From a virus (taxonomy: Duplodnaviria; Caudoviricetes), in IMG/VR virus record IMGVR_UViG_3300046777_001724, positions 1-60,892 of that record: a stretch of DNA of 60,892 nt; one strand, written 5' to 3'. The notes under the pieces are model-generated. The model worked only from the letters and a program-made list of their open reading frames with translations. It was not told the DNA's origin and made no database searches. A program made the position numbers and the translations under genes. Within the stretch, counting starts at the first letter, position 1; the number at the start of each line of letters is the position of its first letter. Positions 12,187-31,312 of the stretch are shown in pieces.

Positions 12187-12509
12187 CCGGCTTTCTCTAA
12201 TCTTACTTTAAAATAAGGATATATACTATATAGAGTAATATTAATATATATTAATATATTAGTATATATTAACATATATGTATATAGTAAAGGGGGTAGG
12301 GGGTAGGGGGTCACGTTCAAGCTTACTATATTTCGTCACCCTATGCAAATGGATCTTCCATATTTTTTGGAATATCTTCTATGCTAGGATGTGGTTCGAG
12401 ACAAGGCCCGAGAGAATGCCCAATATCTTAAAAGATCCACTGGATAGTGAAATCTATTCTTGAGTAAAAATATTGCTCTGTAAAAATCTTCATCTAGTTC
12501 TATTTTGCG

Positions 12510-15090: not shown

Positions 15091-15127
15091 AAAAAGACCC
15101 CCAAGGAAAACTCCAAGGGGGTCTTTT
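15091..15127. terminator. Bidirectional intrinsic terminator
   Basis: AAAAGACCCCC...GGGGGTCTTTT between convergent genes. Confidence 0.8.
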
Positions 15128-15145
15128 GACATATAAGGCTACAGA

Positions 15146-15352
15146 TTAATAATCGTATCCATAGTTTTCTGAATCGTAGTCTTCGTATCTATGATCGTCT
15201 TGTATTGTACTACCGTAGTAAGCCTTAGCGTAGCTAGATGCATCCATTTCTGATTCTAACCACTGTAGACAGTCTGGACAACGTAACACGCTAGCTACCT
15301 GGTCGTCTTTCACTACAAACTCTGTACCACATTTTGGACAGTCCATAAACAT
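15146..15352 (-). CDS. Small zinc-ribbon protein with acidic Tyr-rich tail
   Basis: CPKC..CPDC, AAGGAG SD. Confidence 0.75.
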   Translation of the reverse strand: MFMDCPKCGTEFVVKDDQVASVLRCPDCLQWLESEMDASSYAKAYYGSTIQDDHRYEDYDSENYGYDY

Positions 15353-15512
15353 AACTTAAATTCTCCTTGATGAATTTAGCATTAGTAATAATACTTCAGA
15401 TGGTGTTATCTGGAGTGACGATAACTATACACATAATCTCTAGCATCTGTCTAGTCATATTGGAATATTTCTGGATTATTTGTTTTTTCGCCGGCCATCT
15501 TGTATAGACATG

Positions 15513-15632
15513 TATAGAGCTATATAGATTCTTACACACTGAAAATGTAGGGAAAAATTTTTGAGGCCAAACCTGTATGTAGATATATAGACCTATATAA
15601 ATTCTTATACCTATGAAATAGGGGGAAAATTT
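15513..15632 (+). repeat. Imperfect ~47 bp direct repeat, 2 copies
   Basis: TATAGAGCTATATAGATTCTTAC..TGAAAATGTAGGGAAAAATTT (15513-15560) vs TATAGACCTATATAAATTCTTAT..TGAAATAGGGGGAAAATTT (15586-15632). Confidence 0.65.
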
Positions 15633-15723
15633 ATAAGCGGGTAATAGTGAGTATATGTCATGCTCAAGACCTTTAACGTGCCCACGGGGGTATGGGGTCT
15701 ATTGAAAATAGAAAGATAAAGAA

Positions 15724-16227
15724 ATGAATAAGTTAAACATAGTAGTAAGTGAAATGTGGAATACATTGTTGATGGGTATTGGTATTGTAATTGATGGTCG
15801 TATCATTACAGTAGGTGATAATAGTGCAATGTTGTTTTATGTAAAAGAAGATACTTATGTAGATAAGTATGAATATACAAAGATTCAATTATTAGTTGCA
15901 TATGGAGAATGTGGTGTTATATGGTATGAACTAGACGCATATAACAATGGTAATAATTGGGAATTGATTAATACAGTAGTAGATACACGATATGTGTATG
16001 GAATCCATGTAGGTAATTTAATTAAGTCTATTGATGGTAAGGAATGCATATCATCAAATGGTGACTATGTTGGTTATGGTATTGACCATGCAGAGTTGCT
16101 AGAGGCAATTAAGGCTAATAATGATATGGGTAACTATAGCGATTTTCATGTTTCGTGGGATGAATATCTTACGCAAACATGGATCCAAGCAGAGTCATTC
16201 TTTGCAGATCCAATCTTTGATATATAA
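15724..16227 (+). CDS. Hypothetical protein, first gene of the early-type region
   Basis: ORF track; followed by a terminator. Confidence 0.7.
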   Translation: MNKLNIVVSEMWNTLLMGIGIVIDGRIITVGDNSAMLFYVKEDTYVDKYEYTKIQLLVAYGECGVIWYELDAYNNGNNWELINTVVDTRYVYGIHVGNLIKSIDGKECISSNGDYVGYGIDHAELLEAIKANNDMGNYSDFHVSWDEYLTQTWIQAESFFADPIFDI

Positions 16228-16377
16228 ATAATGTAATCAAAGTAAAGAGAAAGGTGTATGTAATGTACACCTTTTTCTTTTATGGGTAGGTCTAAGACCT
16301 TTAATTACTGTAGCTGTACATACAGTAGCCTGCGTAGATGAGCGCATCTCATCACTAACCATACTCTAGGAGGAGTC

Positions 16378-16707
16378 ATGGCACAATTCACCATCTTCGC
16401 GTTGATCATTCAGATGATCAGCTCGAATCCAAAAGCATACAGCGAAGCTTGTTCAGACGCATTGGTCTGGAATGACCTTCTCTGTGCAGACAACTTGCAG
16501 AATGGTATCTACCATCTCTACATGTGTCATCCAGCAATTCTTCGTGAGGTTCCATACCTCGTAGAAGAAGTGACCATTGCTGAGATTAAGAAGGCGTTGA
16601 ACATGCCTGATAATCATTGGCATTCATACAACCGTGCATCTCTTGAAGAGATTGCTGCTGCTACCCGCATTGATTTGTCGGGTCGCCCAGTAATTAGCTG
16701 GAGATAA
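16378..16707 (+). CDS. Hypothetical protein
   Basis: AGGAGG SD; terminator downstream. Confidence 0.75.
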   Translation: MAQFTIFALIIQMISSNPKAYSEACSDALVWNDLLCADNLQNGIYHLYMCHPAILREVPYLVEEVTIAEIKKALNMPDNHWHSYNRASLEEIAAATRIDLSGRPVISWR

Positions 16708-16777
16708 TCAACACAAAGAAGAACCTCAGTCGTACAGGACTGGGGTTTTTCTTTTATGGGTAGGTTAAAGACCTTCT

Positions 16778-16925
16778 AGTCCTGGTTATTGGGGACTATA
16801 AATAAACTGTAAGTCCGATACTTACGTAATAACAGGAACCATGCGAATGATACTTATCATGCTTAATCGTGAGATTAAGAATAACTATGTATTAGGAAAT
16901 GCACGAGCCTTACGACAACAGTGCA
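16778..16925 (+). ncRNA. Structured 5' leader with tandem pseudoknots, copy A
   Basis: Homologous to 17722-17847 and 23095-23180, with compensatory base changes. Confidence 0.65.
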
Positions 16926-16943
16926 TAATAAAGGGGAATTAAC

Positions 16944-17318
16944 ATTTCCACAACACATAACACACCATTGTTCCCTTACTCAAAGGGATTCAATCCAGCA
17001 TACCCAAATCGCAGGTATGAGTCACAGTATCCTGGCGTCCAACAAGCACCATTGGGATTCTGGGGTAATGACTTCGGTGGCAATATGCGTCGTCCTGTAC
17101 TGACAAATTATACCATTGTTGGTCGTGACACTGGCATCTTGTACCTGCGTTCAAAGACAGGCGATTCCAATGACATCTTTGTAATCAACTTCCATACAGA
17201 TCCTCATTACTTTGAGTATCATTTTCTTGGCAAGAAGGCAAGTTTTGTAGGAAGCCTTGAATGGGACAACATTGCACAAGGCCATTATTTTACATGGTCT
17301 TGCAAGCTTGAGGGTTAA
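16944..17318 (+). CDS. Hypothetical protein (possible ATT start at 16944; TTG at 16968)
   Basis: AAGGGG SD 7 nt before an in-frame ATT. Confidence 0.65.
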   Translation: MSTTHNTPLFPYSKGFNPAYPNRRYESQYPGVQQAPLGFWGNDFGGNMRRPVLTNYTIVGRDTGILYLRSKTGDSNDIFVINFHTDPHYFEYHFLGKKASFVGSLEWDNIAQGHYFTWSCKLEG

Positions 17319-17426
17319 TAACTCTTAAAAAAGAATCCCCTGCTACACATCCAGTGTAGTGGGGGTTTTCTTTTTATGGGTAGATCCAAGACTTTGTAGG
17401 TCATCTATTCAGAAAGGAGGGTGAAC

Positions 17427-17594
17427 ATGTTTGAAGTTCACAGTCCAGACTTTGGCACATACATTCTTTGCGAGCACTGCTACAAAGAAGAAAAAGCCAA
17501 GTTTGCAAATGCTGAGTTTCTCAGCGTTGCAAAACTTAAAGAAGCAGATCACCTTAACTGCCATAAGTGCAGTCTTGGTACTCTTCTTTATTAA
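17427..17594 (+). CDS. Small CxxC..CxxC protein (55 aa)
   Basis: AAAGGAGG SD; MFEVHSPDFGTYILCEHC..NCHKC. Confidence 0.75.
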   Translation: MFEVHSPDFGTYILCEHCYKEEKAKFANAEFLSVAKLKEADHLNCHKCSLGTLLY

Positions 17595-17721
17595 AGTCTG
17601 GTAATTCCGAATAAGATTCGGGGCTAGCACATAGCCTGGCAACAGAAGTGTGCAAAAAGAATTACCCCTGGGGAGAAATCCCTGGGGGTTTTCTTTTTAC
17701 GGTTAGGTTTACAACCCTACC

Positions 17722-17847
17722 AGTCCGAGCTATTGAGGACTTTAAATAAACTGTAAGCTGGATGCTTACGTGATAGTAAGAACCATGCGAATGACGCTGG
17801 CATGTAAAACAACTTGCATTAGGAAACACATGAGCCTTAACAGTGTG
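17722..17847 (+). ncRNA. Structured 5' leader with tandem pseudoknots, copy B
   Basis: See copy A; ends just before the AAAGGAGGT SD. Confidence 0.65.
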
Positions 17848-17865
17848 TTAAAAGGAGGTGTCCAA

Positions 17866-18135
17866 ATGGACGCAATCGTAAACTGGTTTCGTGGACTTCC
17901 ACGGAACATTCAGATCATCATGTTGCTGGCAACATTTATCTTCATCTTGGATGAGATCGTTATTGGTCTTTTCTTTGGTGCATGGGATGTGACCGGCTTC
18001 ATTATTCGTAATGTCAACTGGGGAGCAGTTCTGCTTGCTCTCTTGGCATTTGGTGGATATGCAGTCTACCGCTGGTTCACCAGTGACGAAGAAGATGAAG
18101 AAGAAGAGTACGACAGCTGGGATCTCTACCGCTAG
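17866..18135 (+). CDS. Small membrane protein with acidic tail
   Basis: AAGGAGGT SD; two hydrophobic segments. Confidence 0.8.
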   Translation: MDAIVNWFRGLPRNIQIIMLLATFIFILDEIVIGLFFGAWDVTGFIIRNVNWGAVLLALLAFGGYAVYRWFTSDEEDEEEEYDSWDLYR

Positions 18136-18237
18136 TCATACGCAAGAAGATGTTCCCCTGGGGCTTTGGCTCTGGGGAACTCTTTTTATGGGTAGTAACC
18201 AGGTCATAAGACCTAACCCAAACCACGGAGGTAAAAC

Positions 18238-18378
18238 GTGGCTTACAAGAAGAACACCCCGGTGCTGCCGTTCCAGCAGCCCATCCACCCCAGGTTCAAG
18301 GAGCAGGACTGCTTCGAGACCCGCCGCCACTGGAGGCACATCCCCAACCACAACGTCAAGCCGAAGACGCACAAGTAG
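18238..18378 (+). CDS. Small basic protein (46 aa, GTG start)
   Basis: GGAGGT SD; nearly all codons end in G/C; followed by a terminator. Confidence 0.65.
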   Translation: MAYKKNTPVLPFQQPIHPRFKEQDCFETRRHWRHIPNHNVKPKTHK

Positions 18379-18462
18379 GCAACAAAGAAAGCCCCAGGGT
18401 GAGTTCCTGGGGTTTTTCTTTTATGGGTAGGGCTAAGGCCCCTAAAACAAAAGGAGAAACCC

Positions 18463-18999
18463 ATGTCGTCATCAGACAACAACAAGAAAGGTGGTATCAT
18501 GAAGAAGTTCATTTTCTTCACTTGCCATAACTCATATGTCACCATAACGGTAGACAAAGCTGGGGACATCGTTAAGATGTTCTGGTTCCAACCAGGCACA
18601 TCGTGTCGTCGTCTCGAGTTGATCAATCCAAAGATCATGCTCGATGGTGCCACATTCGATGGCCCCTTCTTGCCATTCAGTGAAGCACACTGGAACATTG
18701 GTGGAAACTTCAGGATTGCTGCTCAAGACATTTTCTGTCTGAGCATTAAGCCAAAGTATATCCCTACATGTAAGGAATGTGGTACATTCCCAGTGTTTGA
18801 ATGGCGATGCTTGTCACACGATGGTATTCGTGAGTACAGCCAGGGATACAACCCTAAGTGCATTATGTGCGAAGGAATGGAAGAAGAACCACTTCCATTC
18901 GTCTCACGCGCATCTGACATCGGTAAAATGATGAAAGATGCACTCGATGCAATCCTCAACTTTACAACAGATGAGGAGGACGGAGGAGACTTCGTCTAG
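18463..18999 (+). CDS. Hypothetical protein with CxxC pairs
   Basis: AAGGAG SD (alternative start 18499). Confidence 0.75.
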   Translation: MSSSDNNKKGGIMKKFIFFTCHNSYVTITVDKAGDIVKMFWFQPGTSCRRLELINPKIMLDGATFDGPFLPFSEAHWNIGGNFRIAAQDIFCLSIKPKYIPTCKECGTFPVFEWRCLSHDGIREYSQGYNPKCIMCEGMEEEPLPFVSRASDIGKMMKDALDAILNFTTDEEDGGDFV

Positions 19000-19113
19000 A
19001 ACAACCAAATAAAGATAGAGCCCCGGTGCAGTACCCCCCGCTGCACTGGGGTTCTTCTTTTATGGGTAGATTTAAGATCCCTATTCTGGGACACCCAACA
19101 GAAAGGAGATGCG

Positions 19114-19422
19114 ATGAGCATCTATTGGAAGAGGAGAATAGCAGTTTTGCTTATTCTCATGATGACATTGTTTGTCATTAAGAAGGCAGATAATACTGTC
19201 AAGGAATACCTGGATAATGACTGGGCTTGTAAGCATCTGATGGTGATCACTGTTCAGAAGGACATGACTCTATCTGAAATTGTGGAGCAGCAGATTACCA
19301 ATGGAAACTGTCAGGGATACGAGGGGCTTCTTGCTTATCTCGTTGAAAAGAACAGTGACTACGGTTCGATCATCTATCCAGGTGAAACAATTACCATCGA
19401 TTCCTACGGAAGCGATAAGTAA
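19114..19422 (+). CDS. Membrane-anchored LysM-like protein
   Basis: YWKRR plus TM helix, then ITVQKDMTLSEIV...IIYPGETITI. Confidence 0.65.
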   Translation: MSIYWKRRIAVLLILMMTLFVIKKADNTVKEYLDNDWACKHLMVITVQKDMTLSEIVEQQITNGNCQGYEGLLAYLVEKNSDYGSIIYPGETITIDSYGSDK

Positions 19423-19461
19423 TAAAGGTCTCATGAAAACTGAGAAAAGAAAGGAGGAGCC

Positions 19462-19548
19462 ATGTTGGCAACATTCATCGTGTTCTACGGACTCATGATT
19501 GTCACCATCAAGGTGATGCGGAAGGCGTTCCGCGCAGAACTGGGTTAA
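19462..19548 (+). CDS. 28 aa single-TM peptide
   Basis: AAGGAGG SD; MLATFIVFYGLMIVTIKVMRKAFRAELG. Confidence 0.6.
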   Translation: MLATFIVFYGLMIVTIKVMRKAFRAELG

Positions 19549-19830
19549 ATCCCAGAAAAGAGTACCCCAGGGTCAGTTCCTGGGGTTTCTCTTTTATGAG
19601 TAGGCCATAGACCCCTACGAGGAAAGGACAATCTCAAATGAGATGTCTATGTTACATATTAATGAAACGGCACACGTGTTTGTGTGCTGTTGTCCGTATT
19701 GCTGCTACCGGGACCTCTCGTGATGGGTGTAAGTGATTAGTTATCTTAATCTTTTTTTATGAGTAGATCCCAGACTTTAGAATAAAGTCGTCTACCCAAA
19801 CAGAGCGGTCTGCATTGGAAAGGGCAGATC

Positions 19831-20109
19831 ATGAACATCAAAGAAGAGAAAGACTTCTTAATCAGTCAGATTGAGGTTTATAAGGCGATATTAAAGTCAC
19901 CTCACGCTACTGATAAATATAAGGCAGCTATAAGCACAAAGCTTCAATCTTTTGAGGCACGATATGTGTTAATAACAACACCACGCAACTACATGGTTGA
20001 TTCCACGCCTCACTACAAAGAGGTTTGGATTGACGGGGAATTATTCCTTGAATGCACATCATGTGGTGCAGACGGTCCCGGCAACTGTGGATGCTGGGTA
20101 ACCGACTAA
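19831..20109 (+). CDS. Hypothetical protein with C-terminal Cys cluster
   Basis: SD upstream; terminator downstream. Confidence 0.7.
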   Translation: MNIKEEKDFLISQIEVYKAILKSPHATDKYKAAISTKLQSFEARYVLITTPRNYMVDSTPHYKEVWIDGELFLECTSCGADGPGNCGCWVTD

Positions 20110-20382
20110 ATAAAAACAAGAAAGAAAACCCTCTATTGGTCGTCCGCTCGGACCAGTAGGGGGTTTTTCTTTTATGGGTAGGACCCAAACTACATAAGGA
20201 GCACACGTGTGTTTAAAAGACATTGACAAATTACATAGACAGATGACGAGTAGAACTATTTAACTAGGTCAGTATGATTAGTTACTTTAATCTTTTTTTA
20301 TGGGTAGATCTCAGGCCTCAGGTCTGGTAAACCCAACCGCCGATGGTCGGCCACCATCAACACTGCATCATGGAGGTGCAAA

Positions 20383-22962
20383 ATGAAGCTCAATCGAGCC
20401 TCAGACCATCCCGGGGCAAATCAGCCACCGGGCAACCCAGAGGGTAACAACCCTCGCAACGGAAAGGGGGAAGCGATGAAGATCATCACATTCCTTCGCA
20501 GTCAATTCCGTGTCGTAACCAATTCGGTAACGGCTGAGGAAAAGGCTGCATACGACGAGTCCATCAAGACACGTCGTCCACAAACCATCAACGGCAACAC
20601 CGTGATGGCAGTCCAGACAGGTGAGTGGATCTACTCACTCCTGGAGAACAAGCTCAACACACGGGGCATCAAGTTCCGTTTGGGCATGATCAGCATTCAA
20701 GACTTGCAGAACGGCATCAGGCACAACTGGTGGACCGTTGACTCGCTCGTCGACGACTGCACTCATGCATGGGCAAACGCAAGCTATGCCTTCTTCTTGA
20801 AGGTTGAGAACATGCGCAGCAATACCAGTGAGATCATTAAGGACTTCGGTCTGGAAGAACTCGGCTTGTTGGCTCTCGACTCAAAGAAGACGAGCAAGCG
20901 TTCACAGGAAATCACACGCATCACACAGGTACGTGCATCTGGAAAGATGGAAATGCTTGATTACGAGGTCTTTGACTCTGGTGATCAGCAGGAAATCTTC
21001 TTCGATGGACCAATCATGGTGCGTGAAAGCTTCCTGCTCAAGGCAGCATTCCGTATCCGTGATGAGCGTGTTCGCAAGCATCACATTTGGATGATCAAGT
21101 CCGGTGAAATCGGACCAATGATCGCTCGTATCCAGATGGATAAGGGTCTCATCAAGGGACTTTTGCGAGCCGTACCGGACGACCAGATCAACAGCGACAT
21201 TGTGTTCCATAAGAGCGCATTGAAGCCTGAGATCAAGTCTACGGACGGATACTGGCATTTCACTGCCTTCCGTTTGAATGTCCTCGGCAAGAAGCTGTGG
21301 GACATGCAGACTGCTGTCAACAACCACAACTGGCTGTACACAGAAGAGCGTTTCTATGAGGATCTTGGGACAATTGTTCCTGAGCTTCAGGCAACGCTTG
21401 ACAGTGGTGAGCTTCCTTCCTGGATTCTTCATCAGCACGACGAAAAGCATGATGATGATGGCATTCCCGTCATCGAGCATGCAACGGCGTACTGGTCAGA
21501 TCAGGCACGTAAGTTCTCTCACGTCAGATGGCAGAACAATGGTCTTCCGATTAGCGCATCGGCAAACATCATTCGCATGGCTTTCGGGTCAGTTGTGAAT
21601 CAGATGACTGCTGCTCGCAAGCGTAAGTCCATGTGGGTTCCGAAGTCACATGCATTTGCTGCACCGTGTATCACTGCTGAGGCATTGACACAAATGGGTG
21701 GCTACCAGCATGAGGACTGGATGAACTACTACGTCTGGTACATGCCTAACGTGGGACTCGTTGTTCCTGGTTCACGTTTTGCGGAGACTGTGTCTTTGCA
21801 CGACGGAATGGACTCGGACGGTGACGTTCTGAGCGTCGAACACATCATGCTGTGGTCTTCTGATGAAGAAGTGACTGAGCGTCGTAAGGAACAGGGTATT
21901 GTCCCTGCTTTCATGACGGTGCCAAGCACTCCTGAAGAAGCAATTCATGCAGGTGTAATGATGCGCAGTCCGAACGGTCCGGGTGGATACTCGATCCAGT
22001 TGATTGACCACGAGAACATGCCATTCATGCATACTTCGACAAAGCTGCAGGTCATTGACCTTGCTAGCACACCGGAGTCGCTGGATGACTTGCTCTACGA
22101 AGTGGGAGCTCAGCCAATCGATGGTTTCCAGACCTACACGAATCAGCCAATGAGCCGTGACAATGCCAAGGAGATGATCAAAGCACAACTTGCCAACCCT
22201 GGTGTTGGTTCGTATGCAAATGCGATCATGTTCTGGGCTGCAGCAAACGGTCCGAGCTATCCCGACTTCCTCCTTACGGACAACAACTCAATCGTTGATA
22301 TCTGTCAGCAAACGGCAGATCTTGACGCATTCGAGATGATTGCTGAAGGCGTGAAGTCCATGTGGGACGAAATGGCAGCATGTGACATGGAGGTTGATGA
22401 ATTCATCCTTCATACTCGTGTTCCCAAGAAGTTCCGGGAGAATCCGGATGAAACGGCATGGACCATTGTTGATGGATCATGGAGCAGAATGAATCGTCGT
22501 TACCTTGCGACGATCAAAGAGCTCAACGACATCATCTCTGAAGGATCTTTCAAGATTCGTCAGCAGAGCTGGTTGGTTGAATCTCTCATCAACAAGATTC
22601 CGACACTTTCACCTGAGACTGTTCAGTGGGCTCGTACCTTCCGCATGAAGTATGAGAACATGTTGACCAGCGTCGATGCAAAGTACAACGAATTCGATGG
22701 AGACAACATTGACCGCTTCATCAAGATGATGGCAGCTGCAAATCGTTCCGACGAAGTTGCTGTCATTGTTCAGATGATGGTGGATGAAATCATGGAAACC
22801 TCCTACCCGGAGAAGTATGCGGTGGCTCTCTACCGTTACATGATCGATCCAAAGTACTCCACTTACAAGTGGGGCGTCTCGGACCGTGTCATCTTCCAAG
22901 GCGGAAAGCCTGGTCAAACGACAGTGATGGACCTGTTCATCGAGGGAATCACCTCCCTCTAG
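20383..22962 (+). CDS. Single-subunit two-barrel (YonO/RdRP-like) RNA polymerase candidate 1
   Basis: FDGPIMV, ARIQ..GLIKG, GMDSDGD (DSDGD at 21811-21825), RSP, VGSYAN, IVD; alternative start 20476. Confidence 0.72.
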   Translation: MKLNRASDHPGANQPPGNPEGNNPRNGKGEAMKIITFLRSQFRVVTNSVTAEEKAAYDESIKTRRPQTINGNTVMAVQTGEWIYSLLENKLNTRGIKFRLGMISIQDLQNGIRHNWWTVDSLVDDCTHAWANASYAFFLKVENMRSNTSEIIKDFGLEELGLLALDSKKTSKRSQEITRITQVRASGKMEMLDYEVFDSGDQQEIFFDGPIMVRESFLLKAAFRIRDERVRKHHIWMIKSGEIGPMIARIQMDKGLIKGLLRAVPDDQINSDIVFHKSALKPEIKSTDGYWHFTAFRLNVLGKKLWDMQTAVNNHNWLYTEERFYEDLGTIVPELQATLDSGELPSWILHQHDEKHDDDGIPVIEHATAYWSDQARKFSHVRWQNNGLPISASANIIRMAFGSVVNQMTAARKRKSMWVPKSHAFAAPCITAEALTQMGGYQHEDWMNYYVWYMPNVGLVVPGSRFAETVSLHDGMDSDGDVLSVEHIMLWSSDEEVTERRKEQGIVPAFMTVPSTPEEAIHAGVMMRSPNGPGGYSIQLIDHENMPFMHTSTKLQVIDLASTPESLDDLLYEVGAQPIDGFQTYTNQPMSRDNAKEMIKAQLANPGVGSYANAIMFWAAANGPSYPDFLLTDNNSIVDICQQTADLDAFEMIAEGVKSMWDEMAACDMEVDEFILHTRVPKKFRENPDETAWTIVDGSWSRMNRRYLATIKELNDIISEGSFKIRQQSWLVESLINKIPTLSPETVQWARTFRMKYENMLTSVDAKYNEFDGDNIDRFIKMMAAANRSDEVAVIVQMMVDEIMETSYPEKYAVALYRYMIDPKYSTYKWGVSDRVIFQGGKPGQTTVMDLFIEGITSL

Positions 22963-23094
22963 ACAAACCGCAAAAAGGCGGAAAATGATCCTACGGGATC
23001 CTGAGACTGGAGTGCCCCTGGGGAAACCTGGGGGCATTCCTTTTATGAGTAGGTCTATGACCTCACTCTAGGGGCCTGAGCCGAAGCTACAGGA

Positions 23095-23180
23095 GGAACC
23101 ATGCAATGATGCAAGCATGAACAGTCGGGAGACTGTAGTACAAAAGCGCATTAGGTAACACGTGGAACCTTAACCATGTG
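23095..23180 (+). ncRNA. Structured 5' leader, copy C (two 3' pseudoknots)
   Basis: GGAACCATGC..GCATG..GCATTAGG..CACGTGG..CCT..CCATGTG. Confidence 0.55.
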
Positions 23181-23201
23181 CAACAAAGAAAGGGGCCAGA
23201 A

Positions 23202-23843
23202 ATGGCACTCACAATCCTGCAGGCGATCCTCGCGGTCGTCTTGCACAACAACCAGTCCATGGAGGAGGCATTTGCCTTCTTCGCCGTCAACACCCGGGAT
23301 GGGTTCACCTACCAGAATGGTAGCGTCCACAAGATCGACTGGATCCGTGGCGAGAACACTGCTCCGTACTACCGCATCGACAAGAAGGGTCGCCTCTTCG
23401 TCGCTCGCAAGTTCGAGAACATTTCATCTTGGGCAATCGACACCAACAAGGTCAAGAACAACCTGCGTGTCAAGCCTGCAATGATCCAGATGAACGTGCT
23501 TCGTGCGTCTGGAAAGCGTGGTGGATACCTCATTCGCCTGCACGTGCAGACTCCGATCTTGGCTCGCACCAAGAAGTTCCAGTTCCACGGCAAGTGGGTT
23601 GGATACTGGGCAAGCGAAACCATGTTGCAGAGCGGCATCTGGACCAAGTCAGCCAACGGAAAGTTTGGTAAGGCGACTTTGATCAACGACGTCATCAGCT
23701 ACGAAACTGTCATGAAGTCCGTGGAGATGCTGAACCATGCCCTGGATAAGGACCGAAACACCAATCTGGTAATCGGTGCCAACAGCATGTTCGGCAAGTC
23801 GTACACCGCAGAAGAATGGATGAACAAGTCCGACCTCTTCTGA
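23202..23843 (+). CDS. Basic hypothetical protein
   Basis: AAAGGGG SD before ATG 23202; strongly GC-ending codons. Confidence 0.8.
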   Translation: MALTILQAILAVVLHNNQSMEEAFAFFAVNTRDGFTYQNGSVHKIDWIRGENTAPYYRIDKKGRLFVARKFENISSWAIDTNKVKNNLRVKPAMIQMNVLRASGKRGGYLIRLHVQTPILARTKKFQFHGKWVGYWASETMLQSGIWTKSANGKFGKATLINDVISYETVMKSVEMLNHALDKDRNTNLVIGANSMFGKSYTAEEWMNKSDLF

Positions 23844-23989
23844 TCCGAAAATCAGACAACAAGGAGATGCCCTGGGGAAACCTGGGGCATTTTCTTTATG
23901 GGTAGATTTTAGACCTCAAGTCGACCCAACTGTTAAAGAATGATGCAGTTATTAAATTATCATTCACTAACATGTCTCTAGGAGGAGCC

Positions 23990-24241
23990 ATGACACCAGT
24001 AAAGAAGTGCTACGCCTGCAAGGGTGTACACACCAACCACAACGAGCAGATCAATTGCTACCGCATCCACGGTCTGCTCATCGAAGCCAACGAGATGGGT
24101 AAGCCCGTCGCAAAGAAGGCTGTCATCACTGACCCTGACCGCATCGTCATCGTGACCTGCGGTTGGGGTAACGCTGCACACAAGTGGGAGACCACTAAGG
24201 CAGAAGCCATCGAACACAAGGCGTGCCCAGAGCACCGCTAA
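23990..24241 (+). CDS. Small Cys/His-rich protein
   Basis: AGGAGG SD before ATG 23990. Confidence 0.75.
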   Translation: MTPVKKCYACKGVHTNHNEQINCYRIHGLLIEANEMGKPVAKKAVITDPDRIVIVTCGWGNAAHKWETTKAEAIEHKACPEHR

Positions 24242-24311
24242 AGGTTCACATTTGACATCGGTGGGGGTGAGAGGTCCACTTCCACCACGTCACAACAGAA
24301 AGGAGCCAGAA

Positions 24312-24605
24312 ATGGCTTTATACTCAACACACTGCACCAATCCAGGCTGTAAGTGTGGCAATCCACCACTTCCTAAATACCCATCGGGTAACAGAAGTAA
24401 AATGTGGGCCTACTGTAATGACTGTTACGCTCGGATCTTTCCAAAAGCAGCAGCCAAGAAAGGCATCACAACCACAACAAAGGTGATCAAGCAGACTACT
24501 GACACCAAGATCATGGAGCGTTGCTCACGCTGTTGCGGGGTTTATGACCCTCAGACCGTGTTCAATCCGGACATGTTCTTGTGTTGGTTCTGCTACCAAC
24601 ACTGA
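24312..24605 (+). CDS. Cys-rich double zinc-finger-like protein
   Basis: AAAGGAG SD before ATG 24312. Confidence 0.75.
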   Translation: MALYSTHCTNPGCKCGNPPLPKYPSGNRSKMWAYCNDCYARIFPKAAAKKGITTTTKVIKQTTDTKIMERCSRCCGVYDPQTVFNPDMFLCWFCYQH

Positions 24606-25071
24606 CAAACAATAAAAAAGAAATTCTTTCCCCTGGGGACTTCTGTCCCTGGGGGTTTTCTTTTATGGGTAATTCCTAAGTCGCTTCAGTGTACTTAGTC
24701 TGAGTAGTATTTAAAGTATCTAGTTAGTCTCATATGTCTGATTAGTTATTCTAAATCCCCCTTCGGGGTTTGCGTAGTCTTCAGGCTGCGTCGCTCTTCT
24801 AAAGTTTCGTCTGGAGATTTACCTTTCCACAAACTCAAGAAAAATAGGGGCTCACATGCCCACAAGTCTACCACTCGGAAGAGAGAGAAAAATAGGGGCT
24901 CATATGCCTCTTCCTCTCACTCCGTGTGGGGAAAAATAGGGGACACTCCCTACGCCGCGACTGGCCTGCCTTCACTGGTGGTAATGCGTACTGTGTCACC
25001 AAAAATAGGGGTAATCCCCTGCGCCGATGGACGCCCTCCATCAACCAGAGCATCTACTACAAGGAGTAACC

Positions 25072-25572
25072 ATGCTGCTCGCAACACGAGTTGGTCAACC
25101 TACGACCAACACCCACAACCGCAAGGACGGTTCGGGTTCGTTCACCTCAGAGTCCACACCCATCGAGTTCCACGGGTTCGATGTCGATCCAGCCACAGGT
25201 TTCATCACCGTCGACTGGGGCATCAAGCACACCCTCTGGACCAGCGATGCTGAAGTCATTGCTACGGCAATCGAGTCAAACTGGAACGCATCCACCTCTG
25301 GATTCGTTCTCTGCCTCGACGCAGCTCGCACCAAGATTGGTGACAACGGACTCCACAAGGTTGAGTTCAAGACCCGCAACGGTGAAGACAAGTCCATTCT
25401 CCAGCGGTCCATCTGGATCGTCGGAGACGCAACTTGGGACTTCATCGCCCGTCCTGTGTCGAGCGACCGTGGCAACCTCGCTGCTGCCCGTGCTAAGGCT
25501 GGCTTGTCCGCCACTGCACCTCGCATCGAGACCACCGTCACCGTGGACACCTCGGTCAAGCCTTTCGGCTGA
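25072..25572 (+). CDS. Hypothetical protein (beta-rich, possible SSB/OB-like), ends DTSVKPFG
   Basis: AAGGAG SD before ATG 25072; strong GC-ending codon bias. Confidence 0.75.
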   Translation: MLLATRVGQPTTNTHNRKDGSGSFTSESTPIEFHGFDVDPATGFITVDWGIKHTLWTSDAEVIATAIESNWNASTSGFVLCLDAARTKIGDNGLHKVEFKTRNGEDKSILQRSIWIVGDATWDFIARPVSSDRGNLAAARAKAGLSATAPRIETTVTVDTSVKPFG

Positions 25573-25844
25573 CCACTAACCCATCCATCCCTGAAGGGGT
25601 GTCGGGTCCTGCAATATGGACTCGGCACTCCTTCTAAAAAAAATATCCGTAGTTCCTTCGCCATGTAGAACTTAGATATCTTACTACCCAGATCGCTGCA
25701 TGGCACCTCCCGGCTGACGTGGGAGTGATCAGTTCTTTACCCCTTTCTGACTGGTCACTCTCACTGACGCTGAGTAAAAAAATTTAAAATAGTTTCCATA
25801 TCGGACACTTAGATTAAAAATAGGGGACAATAAAGGAGATTACC

Positions 25845-26078
25845 ATGGCCCTGTTCAACTTTAGCAATGAAAGTCGTAACACCTATGTTCAAACGAACAT
25901 GTGCCGGCATTGCAAAGAAATCAATTCAATCATCGTTGACATGGACGCATTCACTCAATGGCGTACAGGAAAGCTCTTTATCCAAGATGCATTTCCCCAT
26001 TTGTCTGCAGATGATCGTGAAATTATGATATCTGGCACGCATATTGCTTGCTGGAATAAAATGTTCCCAGAAGAATAA
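25845..26078 (+). CDS. Phage Zn-ribbon protein (IQDAFPHLSADDREIMISG type)
   Basis: AAAGGAG SD, CxxC, recognisable phage motif. Confidence 0.8.
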   Translation: MALFNFSNESRNTYVQTNMCRHCKEINSIIVDMDAFTQWRTGKLFIQDAFPHLSADDREIMISGTHIACWNKMFPEE

Positions 26079-26201
26079 GGAGGATCCAATGTGGACATGT
26101 AATTGCTGCGGTTCTGACAATGAACCAAAGTATGATTATTGCCCGTACTGTGAAGAATGTGGTTGTACAAAAAACAACCCTCGTTGTGAAGAAGTAAACA
26201 A

Positions 26202-26387
26202 ATGACTTCTTGTACAGATTGTAAAAAATATTATTGCTACAACAAAAACTGTAAATACTTTCAAGAAAGACGAAAGAAAGACAGAGATTTAGCATTGACT
26301 CGTCCAGACCCTGAATATACTCAATGGGTACTTAGTCAAATTTTTAATTCACTTATTAAACAAATCAAAGAAGGAAAGGAAAAATAA
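26202..26387 (+). CDS. Hypothetical protein
   Basis: ORF track, operon packing. Confidence 0.55.
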   Translation: MTSCTDCKKYYCYNKNCKYFQERRKKDRDLALTRPDPEYTQWVLSQIFNSLIKQIKEGKEK

Positions 26388-26391
26388 CAAC

Positions 26392-26631
26392 ATGTCAGAA
26401 ATAAGAGTTGAAAACGGACTTCGTTTTCTTGCAGCCATTTCACGTGATCACTTACGTGAATTCATTGACCTAGTTCATACACACATGGGACCTGCAGCAG
26501 AACCTCAATTGCTTATCCACAGTGATGAAACACCTGTTGAAGGAATCTTCCTTAATCAGTTTCATATGAACAACTTGTCACCACTACAAAATAGAATTTA
26601 TAATTCTAAACTCGACAGAGGAGAATTGTAA
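26392..26631 (+). CDS. Hypothetical protein
   Basis: SD, ORF track. Confidence 0.65.
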   Translation: MSEIRVENGLRFLAAISRDHLREFIDLVHTHMGPAAEPQLLIHSDETPVEGIFLNQFHMNNLSPLQNRIYNSKLDRGEL

Positions 26632-26755
26632 GATGATACTTAACATTTTACTTTTAATCAACTTAGTTGGTCTTGCTTTCATCTACAACATCAACAAGAA
26701 AGTTAAATAAAAAATAGGGGAAGTTCAAAAGAACTTATCTATCAATAGGAGAAAA

Positions 26756-26974
26756 ATGAAGTCACTTGTGAAAACATTTCGAATTCTAAACGTTGGATTC
26801 ATGCTTGGCGTAGCTTTCATGGCCTGGCTGTACAACGATGAAATCGAAGCAGGCAAAAAGACAACTAAAGAAGATTCCAATCCCGGAAAACTTCTTGGTG
26901 ACAAAGAATATGCAGCATCACTCGATGATCTGTATAACCACTACCTAGCAAAGGAAAAACTCAAAAATGCGTAA
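26756..26974 (+). CDS. Small TM protein
   Basis: AGGAG SD; hydrophobic N-terminus. Confidence 0.7.
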   Translation: MKSLVKTFRILNVGFMLGVAFMAWLYNDEIEAGKKTTKEDSNPGKLLGDKEYAASLDDLYNHYLAKEKLKNA

Positions 26975-27067
26975 GCACATCACTGTAGCTTTCACTACCA
27001 TCTGCTTCGTCATCGGCATCTACGCCGGCGACAAAGCACGAACACTTTACACCTCAAGGAGTAAATA

Positions 27068-27361
27068 ATGAACACCATTACCCACGTACAAGCCCTCGAG
27101 TTGATTGATGTGGCGGCTCAAGAAAACCGCCTCTATCATCACAATGGGGGACAAGCTTACATTCGTGTAAGCATGTCGCTCAATGTCTTGATGATTATCG
27201 ACCACACAAGAGCTCACCATCCAGAAATCACATTCCACGACGGCACTAAGTATTTCATTGATTGTGTTAACTACAACTTTGAACATTCACACCGTTTGCG
27301 TGAGCATGGTTCTCTCGCAGAATGGTTTAAGAATACTTATCCAGAAAAGGCAGCAGTCTAA
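27068..27361 (+). CDS. Hypothetical protein
   Basis: AAGGAG SD. Confidence 0.75.
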   Translation: MNTITHVQALELIDVAAQENRLYHHNGGQAYIRVSMSLNVLMIIDHTRAHHPEITFHDGTKYFIDCVNYNFEHSHRLREHGSLAEWFKNTYPEKAAV

Positions 27362-27641
27362 TGGAATGGTACTGGTATATTTCCGGTATTGTAACCACAC
27401 TCTTCGTGCAGTCTCTACTTTTAAACGTAGGACTTGCACGTGGGTGGGTTAAGATTTTCAATCGCCGGCCTCAACAGCAGAAAGCTACACTTTATAATTG
27501 GGAAGATCATTCCGGACCAATTTCTAAAGTATCGTAACAAGCTAATACTCACCTTCTAAAATAGGGGAAAGGAGACTAGTTTGTTCGAATGGCTATTTGA
27601 CCTAATCGCAGAACTAATCGATTCAATATTTGGAGAATAAA

Positions 27642-27872
27642 ATGACCCAAGTTGCAAGGTCTGTGGGAAAACTCACAGGCAAAACTCTTACTGGACTCAA
27701 GAAAGTTAGTAAGAAAACAACAGACATGGCTAAAGAAGCCCCAAAAAAGACCTCTGAAACCGTAACAAAGATCAAAAATGATCTGGTTCAAGGGTTTGTC
27801 CAAGAGACAAATACAAAAATAGGGGTCGTAGAAGATGAAATCATCGATACGACTTCTTCAAATCCACAATAA
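27642..27872 (+). CDS. Lys/Thr-rich hypothetical protein
   Basis: GGAG SD before ATG 27642. Confidence 0.65.
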   Translation: MTQVARSVGKLTGKTLTGLKKVSKKTTDMAKEAPKKTSETVTKIKNDLVQGFVQETNTKIGVVEDEIIDTTSSNPQ

Positions 27873-27919
27873 CCACTATCCATCCACTATCATACAATAA
27901 CAAGAATAGGAAAACTCCA

Positions 27920-28948
27920 ATGTCACTCCTGAATAAATTCGGCATCGAAGCCGACAAGTACAAGGTTGAGGTAGATAACCTCGACTCCTTCGCACGTAAG
28001 TCTAATACAACGACTCTCGTGCTCGACCAGCGTGTAAAGGTTCCTGGCTCGCTCAACGGAATTGCTATCCCAACTTGGGCTACACTCCGTAACGCAGAAT
28101 GGCACCGCATCACTGTCCGTGACCACGAAATCAACCGTGCAGGCGAAGGAACTCGCATCAGCCAGGTAGTCGGACTCTCTTTCCGTAATGTAAAGATTGA
28201 CATCGAAGTTGAAATTGAAGGCCAGCTTATGAGCCTTCAAGACTTCGTTCGCTCCATTGCATCAAGCTTCATCAACGGTGAGACCGACAACGAAGTTCTC
28301 GACAAGGTCATCGCAGACTGTGGCTTGAACTTTGACAACATGCCAATGTTCCTCCAGCAAATGGGAGCTAGCACCAACGGATTTGCCCACGCAATCGAAC
28401 TCTTCAAGAGCGCAGGCGGATACGACGATATGCAGTCTGTCAAGAACAACTCACTGTTCCATACAGCATATGCAATCAACAAGTCAGCTCCTGGCTTGAA
28501 GGTCGTTTCATTCGAAATGGGCTCAGCAGACCGTACACAGTCAGCAACTGGACAGGGTTTCGTAGACCTTATCGACGCTGTTGTTGGAAACTTCATGCGT
28601 ATGTGGGAGCACAAGAGCACAATCACAGCATTGAAGGCTAAGCTTGAACAGCCTGGTCTTTCTCAGGCTCAGACTAAGGACATCAACTCACAGATTGAAG
28701 ACCACGAAAAGATGGTCAAGAACTATGGTTCGTCCTGGTCAGGTGCTGCCCGTCAAATCGACAAGGCAACAAAGCTCCCAATGGCAAAGTACAACCCAAT
28801 GAACATCCTCTGTGGTCGTTGGAACGCACTTGTTGGTGAAACAAACACCGAGTTCGATGTATGGTCAACCTCTGAGAAGGCTCCTTCGGGTGACGTCTCC
28901 AACTTGGTCAAGACACCTGTCATCGACACCACTCAGAAGCCATTCTGA
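27920..28948 (+). CDS. Hypothetical protein (342 aa), ends DTTQKPF
   Basis: Long ORF with strong codon bias. Confidence 0.85.
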   Translation: MSLLNKFGIEADKYKVEVDNLDSFARKSNTTTLVLDQRVKVPGSLNGIAIPTWATLRNAEWHRITVRDHEINRAGEGTRISQVVGLSFRNVKIDIEVEIEGQLMSLQDFVRSIASSFINGETDNEVLDKVIADCGLNFDNMPMFLQQMGASTNGFAHAIELFKSAGGYDDMQSVKNNSLFHTAYAINKSAPGLKVVSFEMGSADRTQSATGQGFVDLIDAVVGNFMRMWEHKSTITALKAKLEQPGLSQAQTKDINSQIEDHEKMVKNYGSSWSGAARQIDKATKLPMAKYNPMNILCGRWNALVGETNTEFDVWSTSEKAPSGDVSNLVKTPVIDTTQKPF

Positions 28949-29089
28949 TTTGGAAAAATAGGGGGCTGCGTGACTAACGCGTCTTAAACGACACTGTGGT
29001 GTGCCCTATTATTCCACAACCCGCATGGTTAGCGGGGAAAATCCTCTCACTGGTATATTGAGAATGTTCTAACCAAATATACCACCCAC

Positions 29090-29170
29090 GGGTGCCTGGA
29101 AGGTAACGAGCTCTACATAAGCCCCCCAGTAGAGACCACATGAATAGGTTCGAATCCTATCACACCCACC
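29090..29170 (+). ncRNA. tRNA-like element without a canonical anticodon loop
   Basis: GGGTG/CACCC acceptor followed by ACC; T-arm ATAGG-TTCGAAT-CCTAT; central stem CTCTAC/GTAGAG with a 12-nt loop. Confidence 0.55.
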
Positions 29171-29645
29171 GAGTACCTTGGATAAGACAAACGCTGTGCT
29201 GCGTTGTGAATGCGAAGCGGGATCATCCGATAAGCAGTCGTGCGGTTAAGATAAGCTTCACATATCTTAACCTACCTGTGAAGCAGGTAGTCCAAGGGAA
29301 AGTCTGCGGGCTGCACGTGTCCGAAACACCTAGTCGCGATAGGTGGCTACAACTAATGTTGGTGATAGGAGATATCCTATTATAGAATGCATCGTAGTAA
29401 GTGAAGTAGACGTGTCGAGATTGATAGAAGACTCGCTTATAATGTCCATGTCTGGTATAAACATGACGCATGTTCTATCATTATACCTTTTAACTCGGTT
29501 GCGAGAGTATAAACAGCGTAATCCTCGGGGTCTGGTACGAGCCCGACATAATCATAGTTGCCTGGCATATGCATCTAAAGCGTCGTACATATATGCCAAA
29601 GATCTCTTTTTTGACTAATTCAATATAATACCAGGAGCAATAACT

Positions 29646-29867
29646 ATGAAGTTTCACGGCGAAATCCAATACGAAACCAACAACGGCAATGTTCACTCTG
29701 ACATCTGCTTCAACTGCAACCCTGATGCTGAAACCAAAGAATACTCAGTGGAACACCGTAAGTTTCTTCACGCCTGCTTGGACGAATGGTTGAACCAGTC
29801 CAACGGCACAGGTGCCTTCTGGGTTGGTGACCCTGAATACTTCGCTTCATGGGAGAATGACTACTAA
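29646..29867 (+). CDS. Hypothetical protein
   Basis: AGGAG SD. Confidence 0.75.
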   Translation: MKFHGEIQYETNNGNVHSDICFNCNPDAETKEYSVEHRKFLHACLDEWLNQSNGTGAFWVGDPEYFASWENDY

Positions 29868-30115
29868 TGAGAGAAAACTTAACTCCATGCCTTATATGTG
29901 AAAAGGCTGTTGTCTATCTCTGGCGTGAAGACATCATTGAAGGTGAACCTCCTACCAATCTCGATGGTGCTTCATACTTAAGAATCATTGCTAGCTATGG
30001 ATCTATCTTTGACTGCAATGAATACCAAGCCATCATCTGTGACGATTGTCTCGAACAAGCTGTTCAACGCCGGCGAGTCAACTTCATAAAAGAACATTCA
30101 CCCTTTGGAGACTGA
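29867..30115 (+). CDS. Zn-finger hypothetical protein
   Basis: CLIC..YGS.FD..ICDDC; TAATG translational coupling. Confidence 0.75.
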   Translation: MRENLTPCLICEKAVVYLWREDIIEGEPPTNLDGASYLRIIASYGSIFDCNEYQAIICDDCLEQAVQRRRVNFIKEHSPFGD

Positions 30116-30349
30116 TCTTGTATTCCCTATCTATGGTTATCATACTGTAGATAGGGATACAAAAAATTTTTTATTAGGCTTACGATCACCGAAAAATTTC
30201 GAGTGTTTTGGCCGTATTAAAATTAAATATTTATATTTTTATTTTAGGCCTCAGAACACCGAAATTTAGGTGATCTGCCGGCATAATCAATGAATCATGA
30301 TTTGATCGCCGGCACAACTATAAAATTTTATACTTTTTTGTATCTGGAG

Positions 30350-30379
30350 TTGATTTCGAGTTCCGACATCTGTTATACT
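30350..30379 (+). promoter_or_regulatory. Sigma70-type promoter with extended -10
   Basis: TTGATT-N18-TATACT with TGn. Confidence 0.55.
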
Positions 30380-30420
30380 TTCCTTGTCGGATATAGGAAT
30401 CTATATAAAGGAGATAACAG

Positions 30421-30636
30421 ATGCCCAAGCAGCATCAATCCAAAGCTATAAAAAGTGTATTCGCAGAATTGCGGAGACTAGGTTTTGTAGTTGAACAACG
30501 TAAATCAGGAAGCTATCGGATAGTCCCTCCTTCAACTATAGCAGGTCCTATTTACACGACTCACGGCACGGAATCAGCCCTTCATCCAATACGCCGTGAT
30601 TTCAAAAAATACTATAACATAGAACTTCATATATAG
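30421..30636 (+). CDS. HicA-like (dsRBD-fold) protein
   Basis: 71 aa, LRRLGFVVEQRKSGSYRIVPP pattern; no adjacent HicB. Confidence 0.55.
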   Translation: MPKQHQSKAIKSVFAELRRLGFVVEQRKSGSYRIVPPSTIAGPIYTTHGTESALHPIRRDFKKYYNIELHI

Positions 30637-31239: not shown

Positions 31240-31312
31240 GCCCTGGTAGCTCAGTGGATAGAGCAACGGACTTCTAATCCGCAGGTCGTAGGTTCAAGTC
31301 CTACTCAGGGCG
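31240..31312 (+). tRNA. tRNA-Arg(TCT)
   Basis: Canonical cloverleaf; anticodon loop CTTCTAA. Confidence 0.93.

Follow-up and report, generated by a model that had tools for sequence, protein, structure and literature searches.

What is the element that is repeated, always in one orientation, between the short genes of an 8.4-kb block of a jumbo phage genome? The locus lies in the IMG/VR virus record IMGVR_UViG_3300046777_001724, whose whole length of 60,892 bp is called the window here; the record is classed as linear and has a CheckV completeness of 29%, so that the window represents a fragment of a roughly 200-kb jumbo phage. A reading made from the letters alone (the sequence-only reading) had described 14 cassettes in this block, in which a hairpin and its U-tract run into a conserved motif, here termed class I, and had proposed an earliest-class promoter that might also act as a recombination joint. 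Our analysis favors, with a probability of about 0.6, a composite of an intrinsic terminator and a start signal that is not of the sigma-70 type, the promoter role being suggested by the position of the copies and by a block order that is conserved in relatives. Cassettes are deleted, replaced and reordered at these modules.

The class I module

The 12-nucleotide (nt) core TTTTATGRGTAG occurs 11 times without mismatch, on the + strand only (16278, 16752, 17372, 18184, 18419, 19058, 19592, 19755, 20170, 20296 and 23041). Shuffled sequences contained 0.03 copies on average and 1 at most, none of 100 reaching 11, and the reversed pattern used as a control had no match. With up to two mismatches the pattern is uninformative by itself (22 matches compared with 15.8 expected, 8 of 100 shuffles reaching 22). 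Three of the looser matches, at 17695 (two mismatches), 23894 and 24661 (one each), were retained because they share the hairpin and T-run context, and eight were discarded as chance (19907-, 42086-, 46864+, 53267-, 54847+, 56113-, 57300- and 58696-). The resulting total of 14 copies, all within the single 8.4-kb block, agrees with the number counted at the outset.

A hairpin stands upstream of 12 copies, its T-run leading into the motif; eight of these hairpins were found by a terminator scan (17337, 17664, 18156, 18387, 19017, 19564, 23009 and 24630) and four were read by eye (~16250, 16727, 20129 and 23867). The copies at 19755 and 20296 have no hairpin and are preceded by GATTAGTTAYYTTAA instead. 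Downstream, an open reading frame (ORF) led by a Shine-Dalgarno (SD) sequence follows within 44 to 215 nt of 12 copies, the exceptions being 20170 and 24661, so that the described succession of hairpin, U-tract, motif, leader and short gene holds for most of the cassettes. The features of an intrinsic terminator, a GC-rich stem-loop followed by a T-run, are present as far as sequence can tell, with eight + strand scan hits at copies, and within the 12-32 kb region the + strand terminator-like hairpins are confined to 17.3-24.7 kb.

Position counts over the 14 copies place the conserved span at about -10 to +21 relative to the 12-mer, beginning with the GGGG of the hairpin arm (about -10) and continuing through the T-run and an invariant A-T-G-R-G-T-A-G to A17-G18-A19-C20-C21. 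These counts show that the 3' half of the motif is conserved as sequence, although its supposed AGACCT ending proved less general: AGAC[CT]T is present in six copies and absent from the other eight. Neither a TTGACA-like nor a TATAAT-like hexamer with T at -7 emerged from the counts, and none of 49 sigma-70-like hits of a consensus scan between 12 and 32 kb coincides with a copy, as expected from the initial remark that no sigma-70 -35 is evident. The lack of -35 and -10 elements at the copies argues against the host holoenzyme alone.

The 14 modules, all on the + strand, differ in detail. Module 1 (16250-16300) joins an AT-rich hairpin and T-run to the core at 16278-16289 and a mini-hairpin, AGGTC-TAA-GACCT, ahead of a cargo ORF at 16378-16707. 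Module 2 (16727-16774; core 16752-16763) has a hairpin, a T-run and a long conserved leader before the ORF 16968-17318. Module 3 (17337-17394) consists of a terminator-like hairpin (17337-17365) and the core (17372-17383), with cargo at ~17421-17594. Module 4 (17664-17717), with a hairpin at 17664-17689, the degenerate core TTTTACGGTTAG at 17695-17706 and GGTT-TAC-AACC, is followed by a conserved leader and cargo at 17866-18135. In module 5 (18156-18214; hairpin 18156-18177, core 18184-18195) the mini-hairpin AGGTC-ATAA-GACCT is displaced; its cargo (18238-18378) is 89% identical in the related locus L104. Module 6 (18387-18441) combines the hairpin 18387-18417, the core 18419-18430 and GGGC-TAAG-GCCC with cargo at 18463-18999, and module 7 (19017-19080; hairpin 19017-19055, core 19058-19069) precedes two cargo ORFs, 19114-19422 and 19462-19548.

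Module 8 (19564-19614; hairpin 19564-19586, core 19592-19603) carries the small cargo 19638-19736. Modules 9 (19735-19777; core 19755-19766) and 11 (20276-20318; core 20296-20307) are the two without a hairpin, with GATTAGTTATCTTAA and GATTAGTTACTTTAA upstream, respectively; the former precedes cargo at 19831-20109 and the latter stands directly ahead of a polymerase gene, pol1. Between them, module 10 (20129-20192; hairpin, core 20170-20181) has no cargo ORF before the next copy, 126 nt away. After pol1 follow module 12 (23009-23063), with the hairpin 23009-23040, the core 23041-23052, AGGTC-TAT-GACCT, a conserved leader and cargo at 23202-23843, and module 13 (23867-23916), with a hairpin, the core CTTTATGGGTAG at 23894-23905 and cargo at 23990-24241 and ~24313-24605. 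Module 14 (24630-24683; hairpin 24630-24655, core TTTTATGGGTAA at 24661-24672) has a degenerate 3' half and no cargo, and closes the block. For eight proteins encoded in or next to the block, including five cargo proteins, Pfam gave no match and PHROGs none that could be used.

Three of the cassette leaders (16830-16915, 17775-17845 and 23095-23185) share a motif of ~110 nt, GAACCATGCRAATGA ... GCATTAGGWAAC ..., which leads up to the ribosome site with a GAGCCTTAAC loop, closed by a stem that shows compensatory changes. The motif, by its sequence a candidate cis-regulatory RNA, has no Rfam match and was not found in the relatives. At the gathering level Rfam recognized tRNAs only, and at E values of up to 1 the region 16.2-25.2 kb gave nothing but sub-threshold chance matches.

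Two polymerases and two motif classes

The gene that follows module 11, pol1 (20383-22962, + strand), encodes 859 amino acids (aa); the statement that the motif also precedes a polymerase gene was thus borne out. By alignment, predicted structure and Foldseek comparison the product is a single-chain two-barrel RNA polymerase. Its family comprises 117 representative clusters, and an alignment of 44 members (profile A1) shows D477, D479 and D481 of a D477-x-D479-x-D481 motif as well as K169, K172 and R173 to be invariant. The AlphaFold (AF2) model, with a predicted local distance difference test score (pLDDT) of 87.9, matched plant RDR2, fungal QDE-1 and the non-virion polymerases gp64/gp62 of P23-45-like Thermus phages (8f72, 8f5m) with a Foldseek probability of 1.0.

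A second polymerase gene, pol2 (35385-37964, + strand, 859 aa), is a distant paralog (20% identity to pol1, E 1e-4; E 5e-50 against the pol1 profile). Its orthologs share an invariant D445-x-D447-D448 and K110/K113/R114, the metal loop being DxDD in pol2 and DxDxD in pol1, and pol2 is the better conserved of the two among relatives (57-65% identity to the window, compared with 36-43% for pol1). Both families are remote from known ones. A Pfam and PHROGs search of 18 window proteins gave no match for pol1, pol2 or cargo, searches of pol1, pol2 and profile A1 against solved structures gave nothing meaningful, and tblastn of both polymerases against the phage collection returned 0 matches. Close pol1 relatives were not found by a single-protein pattern scan of viral contigs; an alignment-based scan of such contigs succeeded.

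Immediately after the class I block begins a second block (24840-34807, + strand) with 10 exact copies of an unlike motif, AAAAATAGGGG (class II), none of them on the - strand. Four form a tandem array at 24840-25011, spaced by 44-69 nt, and the last, at 34797, precedes the ORF 34915-35349 and pol2. Class II copies have no hairpins, and several abut ribosome sites; at copy 27557 the SD sequence starts 1-2 nt after the motif, so that a start site must lie inside it. Behind the class I copy ahead of pol1 stands a leader (20326-20361) that recurs with 81% identity after the fourth of the tandem class II copies (25010-25045), so that one leader is found with two motif classes. Tandem class II copies right after pol1 are also seen in relatives (151607/151656 in the genome G002, 12782/12831/12884 in L028 and 12693/12760 in L019).

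The early block as a whole is headed by a conserved non-coding element, P0 (15553-15696, + strand), which contains the class II-like TGAAATAGGGGG (15614) and CTTTAACGTGCCCAC and may be the primary promoter of the block. P0 aligns with loci of five relatives, in three of which (L058, L073 and L086) the array of class I copies begins right behind it, and its CTTTAACG... part is also present in lineages without class I modules (L012, L014 and L021). P0 includes a class II-like AAATAGGGG and CTTTAACGWG..CAC, and L058 and L086 have the G-rich tail of P0, GGGGGTATGGGG, as the reverse complement, CCCCCCATACCCCC. TATAGAC-type repeats lie ahead of the early block at 15503-15601.

The succession of class I block, pol1, class II block and pol2 is retained in relatives. 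The alignment-based scan yielded pol1 homologs at 20 viral-contig loci (23-43% identity, contigs of up to 231 kb). Relatives that retain the architecture have pol1 identities of 22-43% and carry variant motifs. The class I motif reads TTATG[AC]CTAG in L009 and L010, TTATG[AG]CTAG in L013, L016 and L022 (with AAAATAGGG after pol1), TTATGACTAG in L015 and L017, and TTTTGAG[GT]ATAG behind a GTTTCCCCTGGGG hairpin in L025, L027 and L028, which later have AAACAAAGTGGGG. In G002, a complete genome of 209,701 bp, all 15 class I copies are on the + strand in a 12-kb block just ahead of pol1 (136,937-148,775), and pol1 and pol2 enclose eight of the nine class II copies. The block ahead of pol1 likewise holds seven of eight class I copies in G001 and seven of nine in G005.

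The class II variant tracks the pol1 clades, being AAAA[TA]GGGG in the window, G002 and G005, and GGAATAAGT[CG]GG in G001, G003 and L019; the class I core is common to G001, G002 and G005 despite this change. A 14-nt scan of viral contigs, whose matches were mostly single and due to chance and from which only the eight loci with at least two copies were used, found the exact window core in closer relatives (L086, L094/L098, L104, L073, L058, L064 and L111). Five of the 12 copies in L013 have no hairpin and retain the core, and in L010 two class I copies stand in tandem, 38 nt apart.

Further polymerases were sought with the profiles A1 and A2, which found no polymerase beyond the two paralogs, either in the window or in those records of relatives that were searched (up to five, four of them at least 97% complete); the window ORFs 5298-8276(-) and 53263-55227 had no match to A1. 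For a T7-like polymerase (PF00940) there was no match in the window or in four relatives' records, the control genomes being silent too, and sigma factor region 2 was absent from the same set. The four giant ORFs of G002 resemble only virion or lysin-like proteins in PHROGs and Pfam. Its giant virion ORFs contain no D.DD or D.D.D motif, three of the four were compared with A2 and had no profile match, and a 1560-aa ORF had no named match in the ESM Atlas.

Two other motifs were considered. A third motif, TATAATGATTC, was dropped as it is located mostly inside ORFs. TTACTATA is enriched in intergenic DNA ahead of the - strand (structural/late) genes of G002 (e.g., 205179-, 92850- and 25108-), a few sites having a TTGACA-like hexamer ~17 nt upstream; it is a lead only, possibly a third promoter class or a host-type late-gene promoter.

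Cassette turnover at the modules

Recombination at the modules was assessed with Logan DNA contigs from four runs of four studies, which were placed on positions 15500-25500 of the window at 85% likeness. Joints were accepted with at least 30 matching letters on each side; 15650->20287, 15698->16776, 16772->22997 and 21339->24650 had fewer on one side and were not used. The joint 17380->17704, present in two runs from two studies, removes precisely the cassette between copies 3 and 4 (that of module 3), and 19752->20293 removes a cassette between the two hairpin-less copies (that of module 9). Reordering at or just after copies is seen in 23038->19590, 23063->17718, 24664->18216 and 17394->18450, and 16809->17780 connects two homologous leaders. 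ORF bodies are replaced or lost at 16383->16715, 15724->16234 and 17848->18147, and 18649->17654 lies away from any copy. In addition, contigs of two runs diverge exactly behind 19603, the end of the module 8 core. Exact repeats among the copies compared, a subset of the possible pairs, are shorter than 31 nt, which makes k-mer assembly chimeras unlikely.

Relatives show the same mosaic. L064 has a different cargo in cassette 1, flanked by a leader of 96% identity and a following module of 92% identity. Between L010 and L015, whose pol1 proteins are 37% identical, patches of the block with 88-92% identity recur in a different order, and at 5577-5674 L010 has an additional module that separates two genes adjoining each other in L015. 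Five of six ends of high-scoring segment pairs between L025 and L028 fall within -72 to +18 nt of a module. Only three of the 14 cargo proteins had a tblastn match in the loci of 19 relatives, while the modules align.

Taken together, joints in or within ~30 nt of copies and relatives that are mosaic at the modules bear out the proposed role as recombination joints. As the same sequence of ~30 nt flanks every cassette, homologous recombination between copies would suffice to delete, replace, reorder and exchange cassettes.

Readings of the module and known systems

In the reading that we prefer, each copy would be a composite regulatory module of about 32-60 nt. Its upstream GC-rich hairpin and T-run would end the transcript of the preceding small gene, and the T-run, the invariant core (T4-A-T-G-R-G-T-A-G) and the semi-conserved nTCnnAGACC would form a phage-specific, non-sigma-70 start signal that launches the next, mostly one-gene transcript. 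The start-signal part is supported by the conservation 10-20 nt past the T-run, where an intrinsic terminator needs no sequence, and by the retention of the core without a hairpin, at 19755 and 20296 and in five of the 12 copies in L013. Transcription would most likely start within the core or immediately behind it, the predicted position being the invariant G (position 7 of TTTTATGRGTAG), and the small hairpin seen at many copies would then form at the 5' end of the RNA instead of acting as a promoter hairpin in the DNA. Only 14-15 nt separate TAG from the ribosome site in L086 (copy 11106) and L015 (copy 2110). This leaves no room for a start beyond the core or its immediate 3' side, which puts the hairpin into the transcript; a start ~3-5 nt after ACCT, as first expected, is unlikely for this reason.

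The order of the blocks suggests a staged program, in which the class I block (with pol1) would be followed by the class II block AAAAATAGGGG (with pol2) and this by the rest of the genome. Most likely, pol1 reads class II. For class I, a virion-borne polymerase, either packaged pol2 or one that went undetected, is the leading candidate at somewhat less than even odds; the host polymerase with an additional specificity factor has a smaller chance, and some other enzyme a slightly smaller one still. A bolder version is doubtful but would tie these parts together: class I would be the promoter of a virion-delivered two-barrel polymerase, most simply packaged pol2, and pol1 would read class II and so remake pol2, closing a host-independent loop, with modules spreading between co-infecting jumbo phages and bringing new genes under immediate early control.

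Several observations weigh against the composite terminator and start signal. A gene end precedes 13 of the 14 copies, as is also expected of a terminator tail, and because the cassettes are tightly packed, position alone cannot separate a promoter from such a tail. Copy 10 stands as an orphan, and no cargo follows copy 14. That canonical terminators are found only in the class I block fits a bacterial-type polymerase and sits badly with a promoter that is not of the sigma-70 type. The genome G003, whose pol2 and pol1 are 88 and 70% identical to those of G001, has 0 motif copies in 204,904 bp, and its early genes are tightly packed behind the conserved non-coding element; the modules are thus dispensable, and an early block can run as an operon behind P0. 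With no third polymerase, T7-like polymerase or sigma factor found in the records searched, pol2 and the host enzyme are the only candidates identified for reading class I. Finally, the joints come from metagenome contigs matched at the likeness given above, and no RNA run was among the sequencing runs listed in a search for the window sequence.

The G003 arrangement bears on the alternative that survives best, although we regard it as improbable. The modules would then serve RNA processing or stability: one long transcript would be made from P0 by a polymerase that ignores hairpins, and an endonuclease would cut the U-rich/AUGGGUAG stretch, leaving a protective 3' hairpin upstream and a 5' stem-loop downstream. 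RNase III processing of the T7 early region offers a parallel. P0 heads the block in at least six lineages, the G003 block without modules looks operon-like, the layout of hairpin, single-stranded U-rich stretch and hairpin suits a cleavage site, and the variable position of the second hairpin is expected of an RNA element. Moreover, YonO-type enzymes lack the flap implicated in hairpin termination, according to the discussion in the YonO report (PMC5467207). The copies without an upstream hairpin are difficult to accommodate, however, as is the parallel class II motif, which has no hairpins and abuts ribosome sites in a promoter-like manner. A 12-nt core of such invariance is, in addition, unusual for RNase E, Y or III sites.

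It is still less probable that the core belongs to a stop signal rather than a start, as a sequence-specific terminator of a phage polymerase. Such a role would agree with the 13 copies that follow a gene end, with the last copy, 24661, which closes the block without cargo, and with the conserved 26-nt motif at seven termination sites of the two-barrel virion polymerase of P23-45 (PMC10770324). It would not explain why copy 20296 follows no gene and stands directly ahead of pol1, why the first copy in L058, L073 and L086 follows the non-coding P0, or why two copies stand 38 nt apart in L010, and the downstream genes would still lack a start signal.

The idea of an N4-type structural promoter, in which the small inverted repeat would be extruded as a DNA hairpin for an injected polymerase and fix the start a few nucleotides downstream, is about equally unlikely. 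It draws on the 5-bp stem and 3-nt loop at copies 16278 and 23041, and the 3' half of the motif had been described as an inverted repeat with compensatory changes. This holds for the four copies quoted in its favor and for the displaced repeat at 18201-18214, but not as a general rule: all three variable stem positions are paired in four of the 14 window copies, which is not above the dealt-out control (mean 1.96; 210 of 2000 reach 4). Pairing is more frequent in relatives, where the stem often begins at the T of TAG (TAGnnn-loop-nnnCTA) and inner pairs covary. Full pairing was found in six of 11 copies in L010 (8 of 2000 controls reach 6), in three of seven in L015 (40 of 2000 reach 3) and in 22 of 58 copies overall, compared with a pooled control mean of 9.5 that mixes lineages.

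For the 54 unique copies that have the window's core, the fold of the 26-nt stretch starting at TAG is more stable than that of shuffles (mean z -1.54, and -0.71 for a control stretch 45 nt downstream); 24 copies lie below -1.5, compared with 16 in the control stretch, and 30 lie above. The stem has its first base at TAG in some copies and 7-9 nt further on in others, the loop measures 3-6 nt, and in the relatives the SD sequence starts no more than 5 nt after the small hairpin. N4 promoters, by contrast, require a fixed geometry with specific loop and stem bases (PMC4496689), that is, a stem of 5-7 bp, a 3-nt loop and a fixed distance to the start, which the class I copies do not show. With a mini-hairpin that is absent or weak in about half of the copies and varies in position and loop, and with no T7/N4-type polymerase found in a search whose control was silent, the N4 analogy drawn at the outset does not carry over to class I.

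A site for recombination or mobility only, be it the target of a site-specific recombinase or a selfish mini-element without a role in transcription, is very unlikely in spite of the joints inside the motif and the module inserted in L010 between genes contiguous in L015, since the copies share a single orientation that matches the genes, are fused to terminators and stand ahead of ribosome sites, homologous exchange between 30-nt repeats suffices for the joints, and no recombinase was noted in the block, although most of its cargo has no family.

The phage behind the window encodes a large terminase, a ClpX-like ATPase, RecA, a helicase, a subtilase and five tRNAs, as identified by Pfam/PHROG and tRNA searches. 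The terminase (TerL) is closest to those of Moorella phage MTATph1 and of Bacillus jumbo phages of the 0305phi8-36 type (28-38% identity); Megablast of the window region 16-25 kb against the phage collection gave 0 matches. DNA runs containing the stretch are freshwater or lake metagenomes and one crustacean metagenome, and the phage group is abundant in lake metagenomes, where RecA homologs with 73-97% identity occur on many contigs, some of ~200 kb. A host could not be assigned through RecA, the best matches being the phage group itself. The G+C content is 0.44-0.51 in the class I block and pol1 and 0.35-0.39 in the regions flanking both motif blocks, alike in the window (16278-24700) and in G002 (136.9-151.5 kb); the higher content would fit early expression, at a time when the phage tRNAs are not yet active.

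At the divergent junction of - and + strand gene blocks (12200-12330), AT-rich palindromic repeats and a GGGGTAGGGGGTAGGGGG run are found; this region could be an origin or a control region, and a G-run resembling GGGGTAGGGGGTAGGGGG is present in L021. A bidirectional terminator-like hairpin at 15096-15127 (GACCCCCAAGG...CCAAGGGGGTC, flanked by A- and T-runs) lies between the RecA operon and a small - strand gene (15146-15352), and L021 shows the same layout.

How does the locus compare with known systems? Like the early promoters P1-P3 of N4, the class I modules pair a conserved sequence with a small inverted repeat, precede early genes and belong to a phage that has a cascade of polymerases; N4, however, relies on a T7-like virion polymerase, a fixed hairpin with a 5-7 bp stem and a 3-nt loop, gyrase and the single-stranded DNA-binding protein SSB (PMC4496689), whereas the hairpin here is inconsistent and the polymerases belong to another superfamily. 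YonO of the Bacillus prophage SPbeta is likewise a single-chain relative of multisubunit polymerases that transcribes phage genes, and its promoter is stated to be still to be determined (PMC5467207); pol1 and pol2 differ in having no sequence match to any solved structure or Pfam family.

The likeness to the Thermus phage P23-45 extends further. Its single-chain two-barrel polymerases, gp96 (the virion polymerase, fused to the tape measure) and gp64 (the non-virion polymerase), are accompanied by two unlike motif classes in adjacent blocks, the first of which carries the next polymerase gene (PMC10770324). In the window, in G002 and in other relatives, two-barrel polymerases are encoded as well, successive blocks carry distinct motifs and the gene of the next polymerase, and the fold of pol1 resembles gp64/gp62 (8f72, 8f5m). 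The motifs are unrelated, both detectable polymerases are of ~860 aa and encoded outside the structural genes, and a virion polymerase was not found by profile searches and by motif and family scans of the giant ORFs. In the part of the P23-45 report at hand, the promoters are not described as hairpin-terminator fusions or recombination joints (PMC10770324).

A literature search found nothing on promoters of YonO-type two-barrel polymerases in jumbo phages. The window and its relatives offer natural variation across lineages, two candidate promoter classes that are sharply delimited and a pair of expressible candidate cognate enzymes (~860 aa), so that the promoter specificity of this enzyme family can be tested in vitro and no host culture is required.

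Among known systems, the PeSLs (promoter-early stem-loops) of T4-type phages come closest. They are small modules of a promoter and a stem-loop or terminator, repeated in a plastic region upstream of ORFans, and recombination between copies inserts, deletes or replaces cassettes between related phages (Arbiol et al. 2010, PMC2839356). Class I modules share the stem-loop, judged by sequence, the plastic ORFan region and the recombination between copies, and the PeSL analogy drawn at the outset holds in behavior, gene content breaking at the modules. They lack the defining sigma-70 early promoter: PeSL promoters match the Escherichia coli sigma-70 consensus (-35, -10 and an AT-rich upstream region) and are read by the host enzyme (PMC2839356), whereas here no -35/-10 is present, two phage two-barrel polymerases are encoded and the phage is not T4-like. 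The PeSL principle of regulatory modules that serve at the same time as recombination joints for the turnover of early ORFans is thus not tied to host sigma-70 promoters or to T4-like phages.

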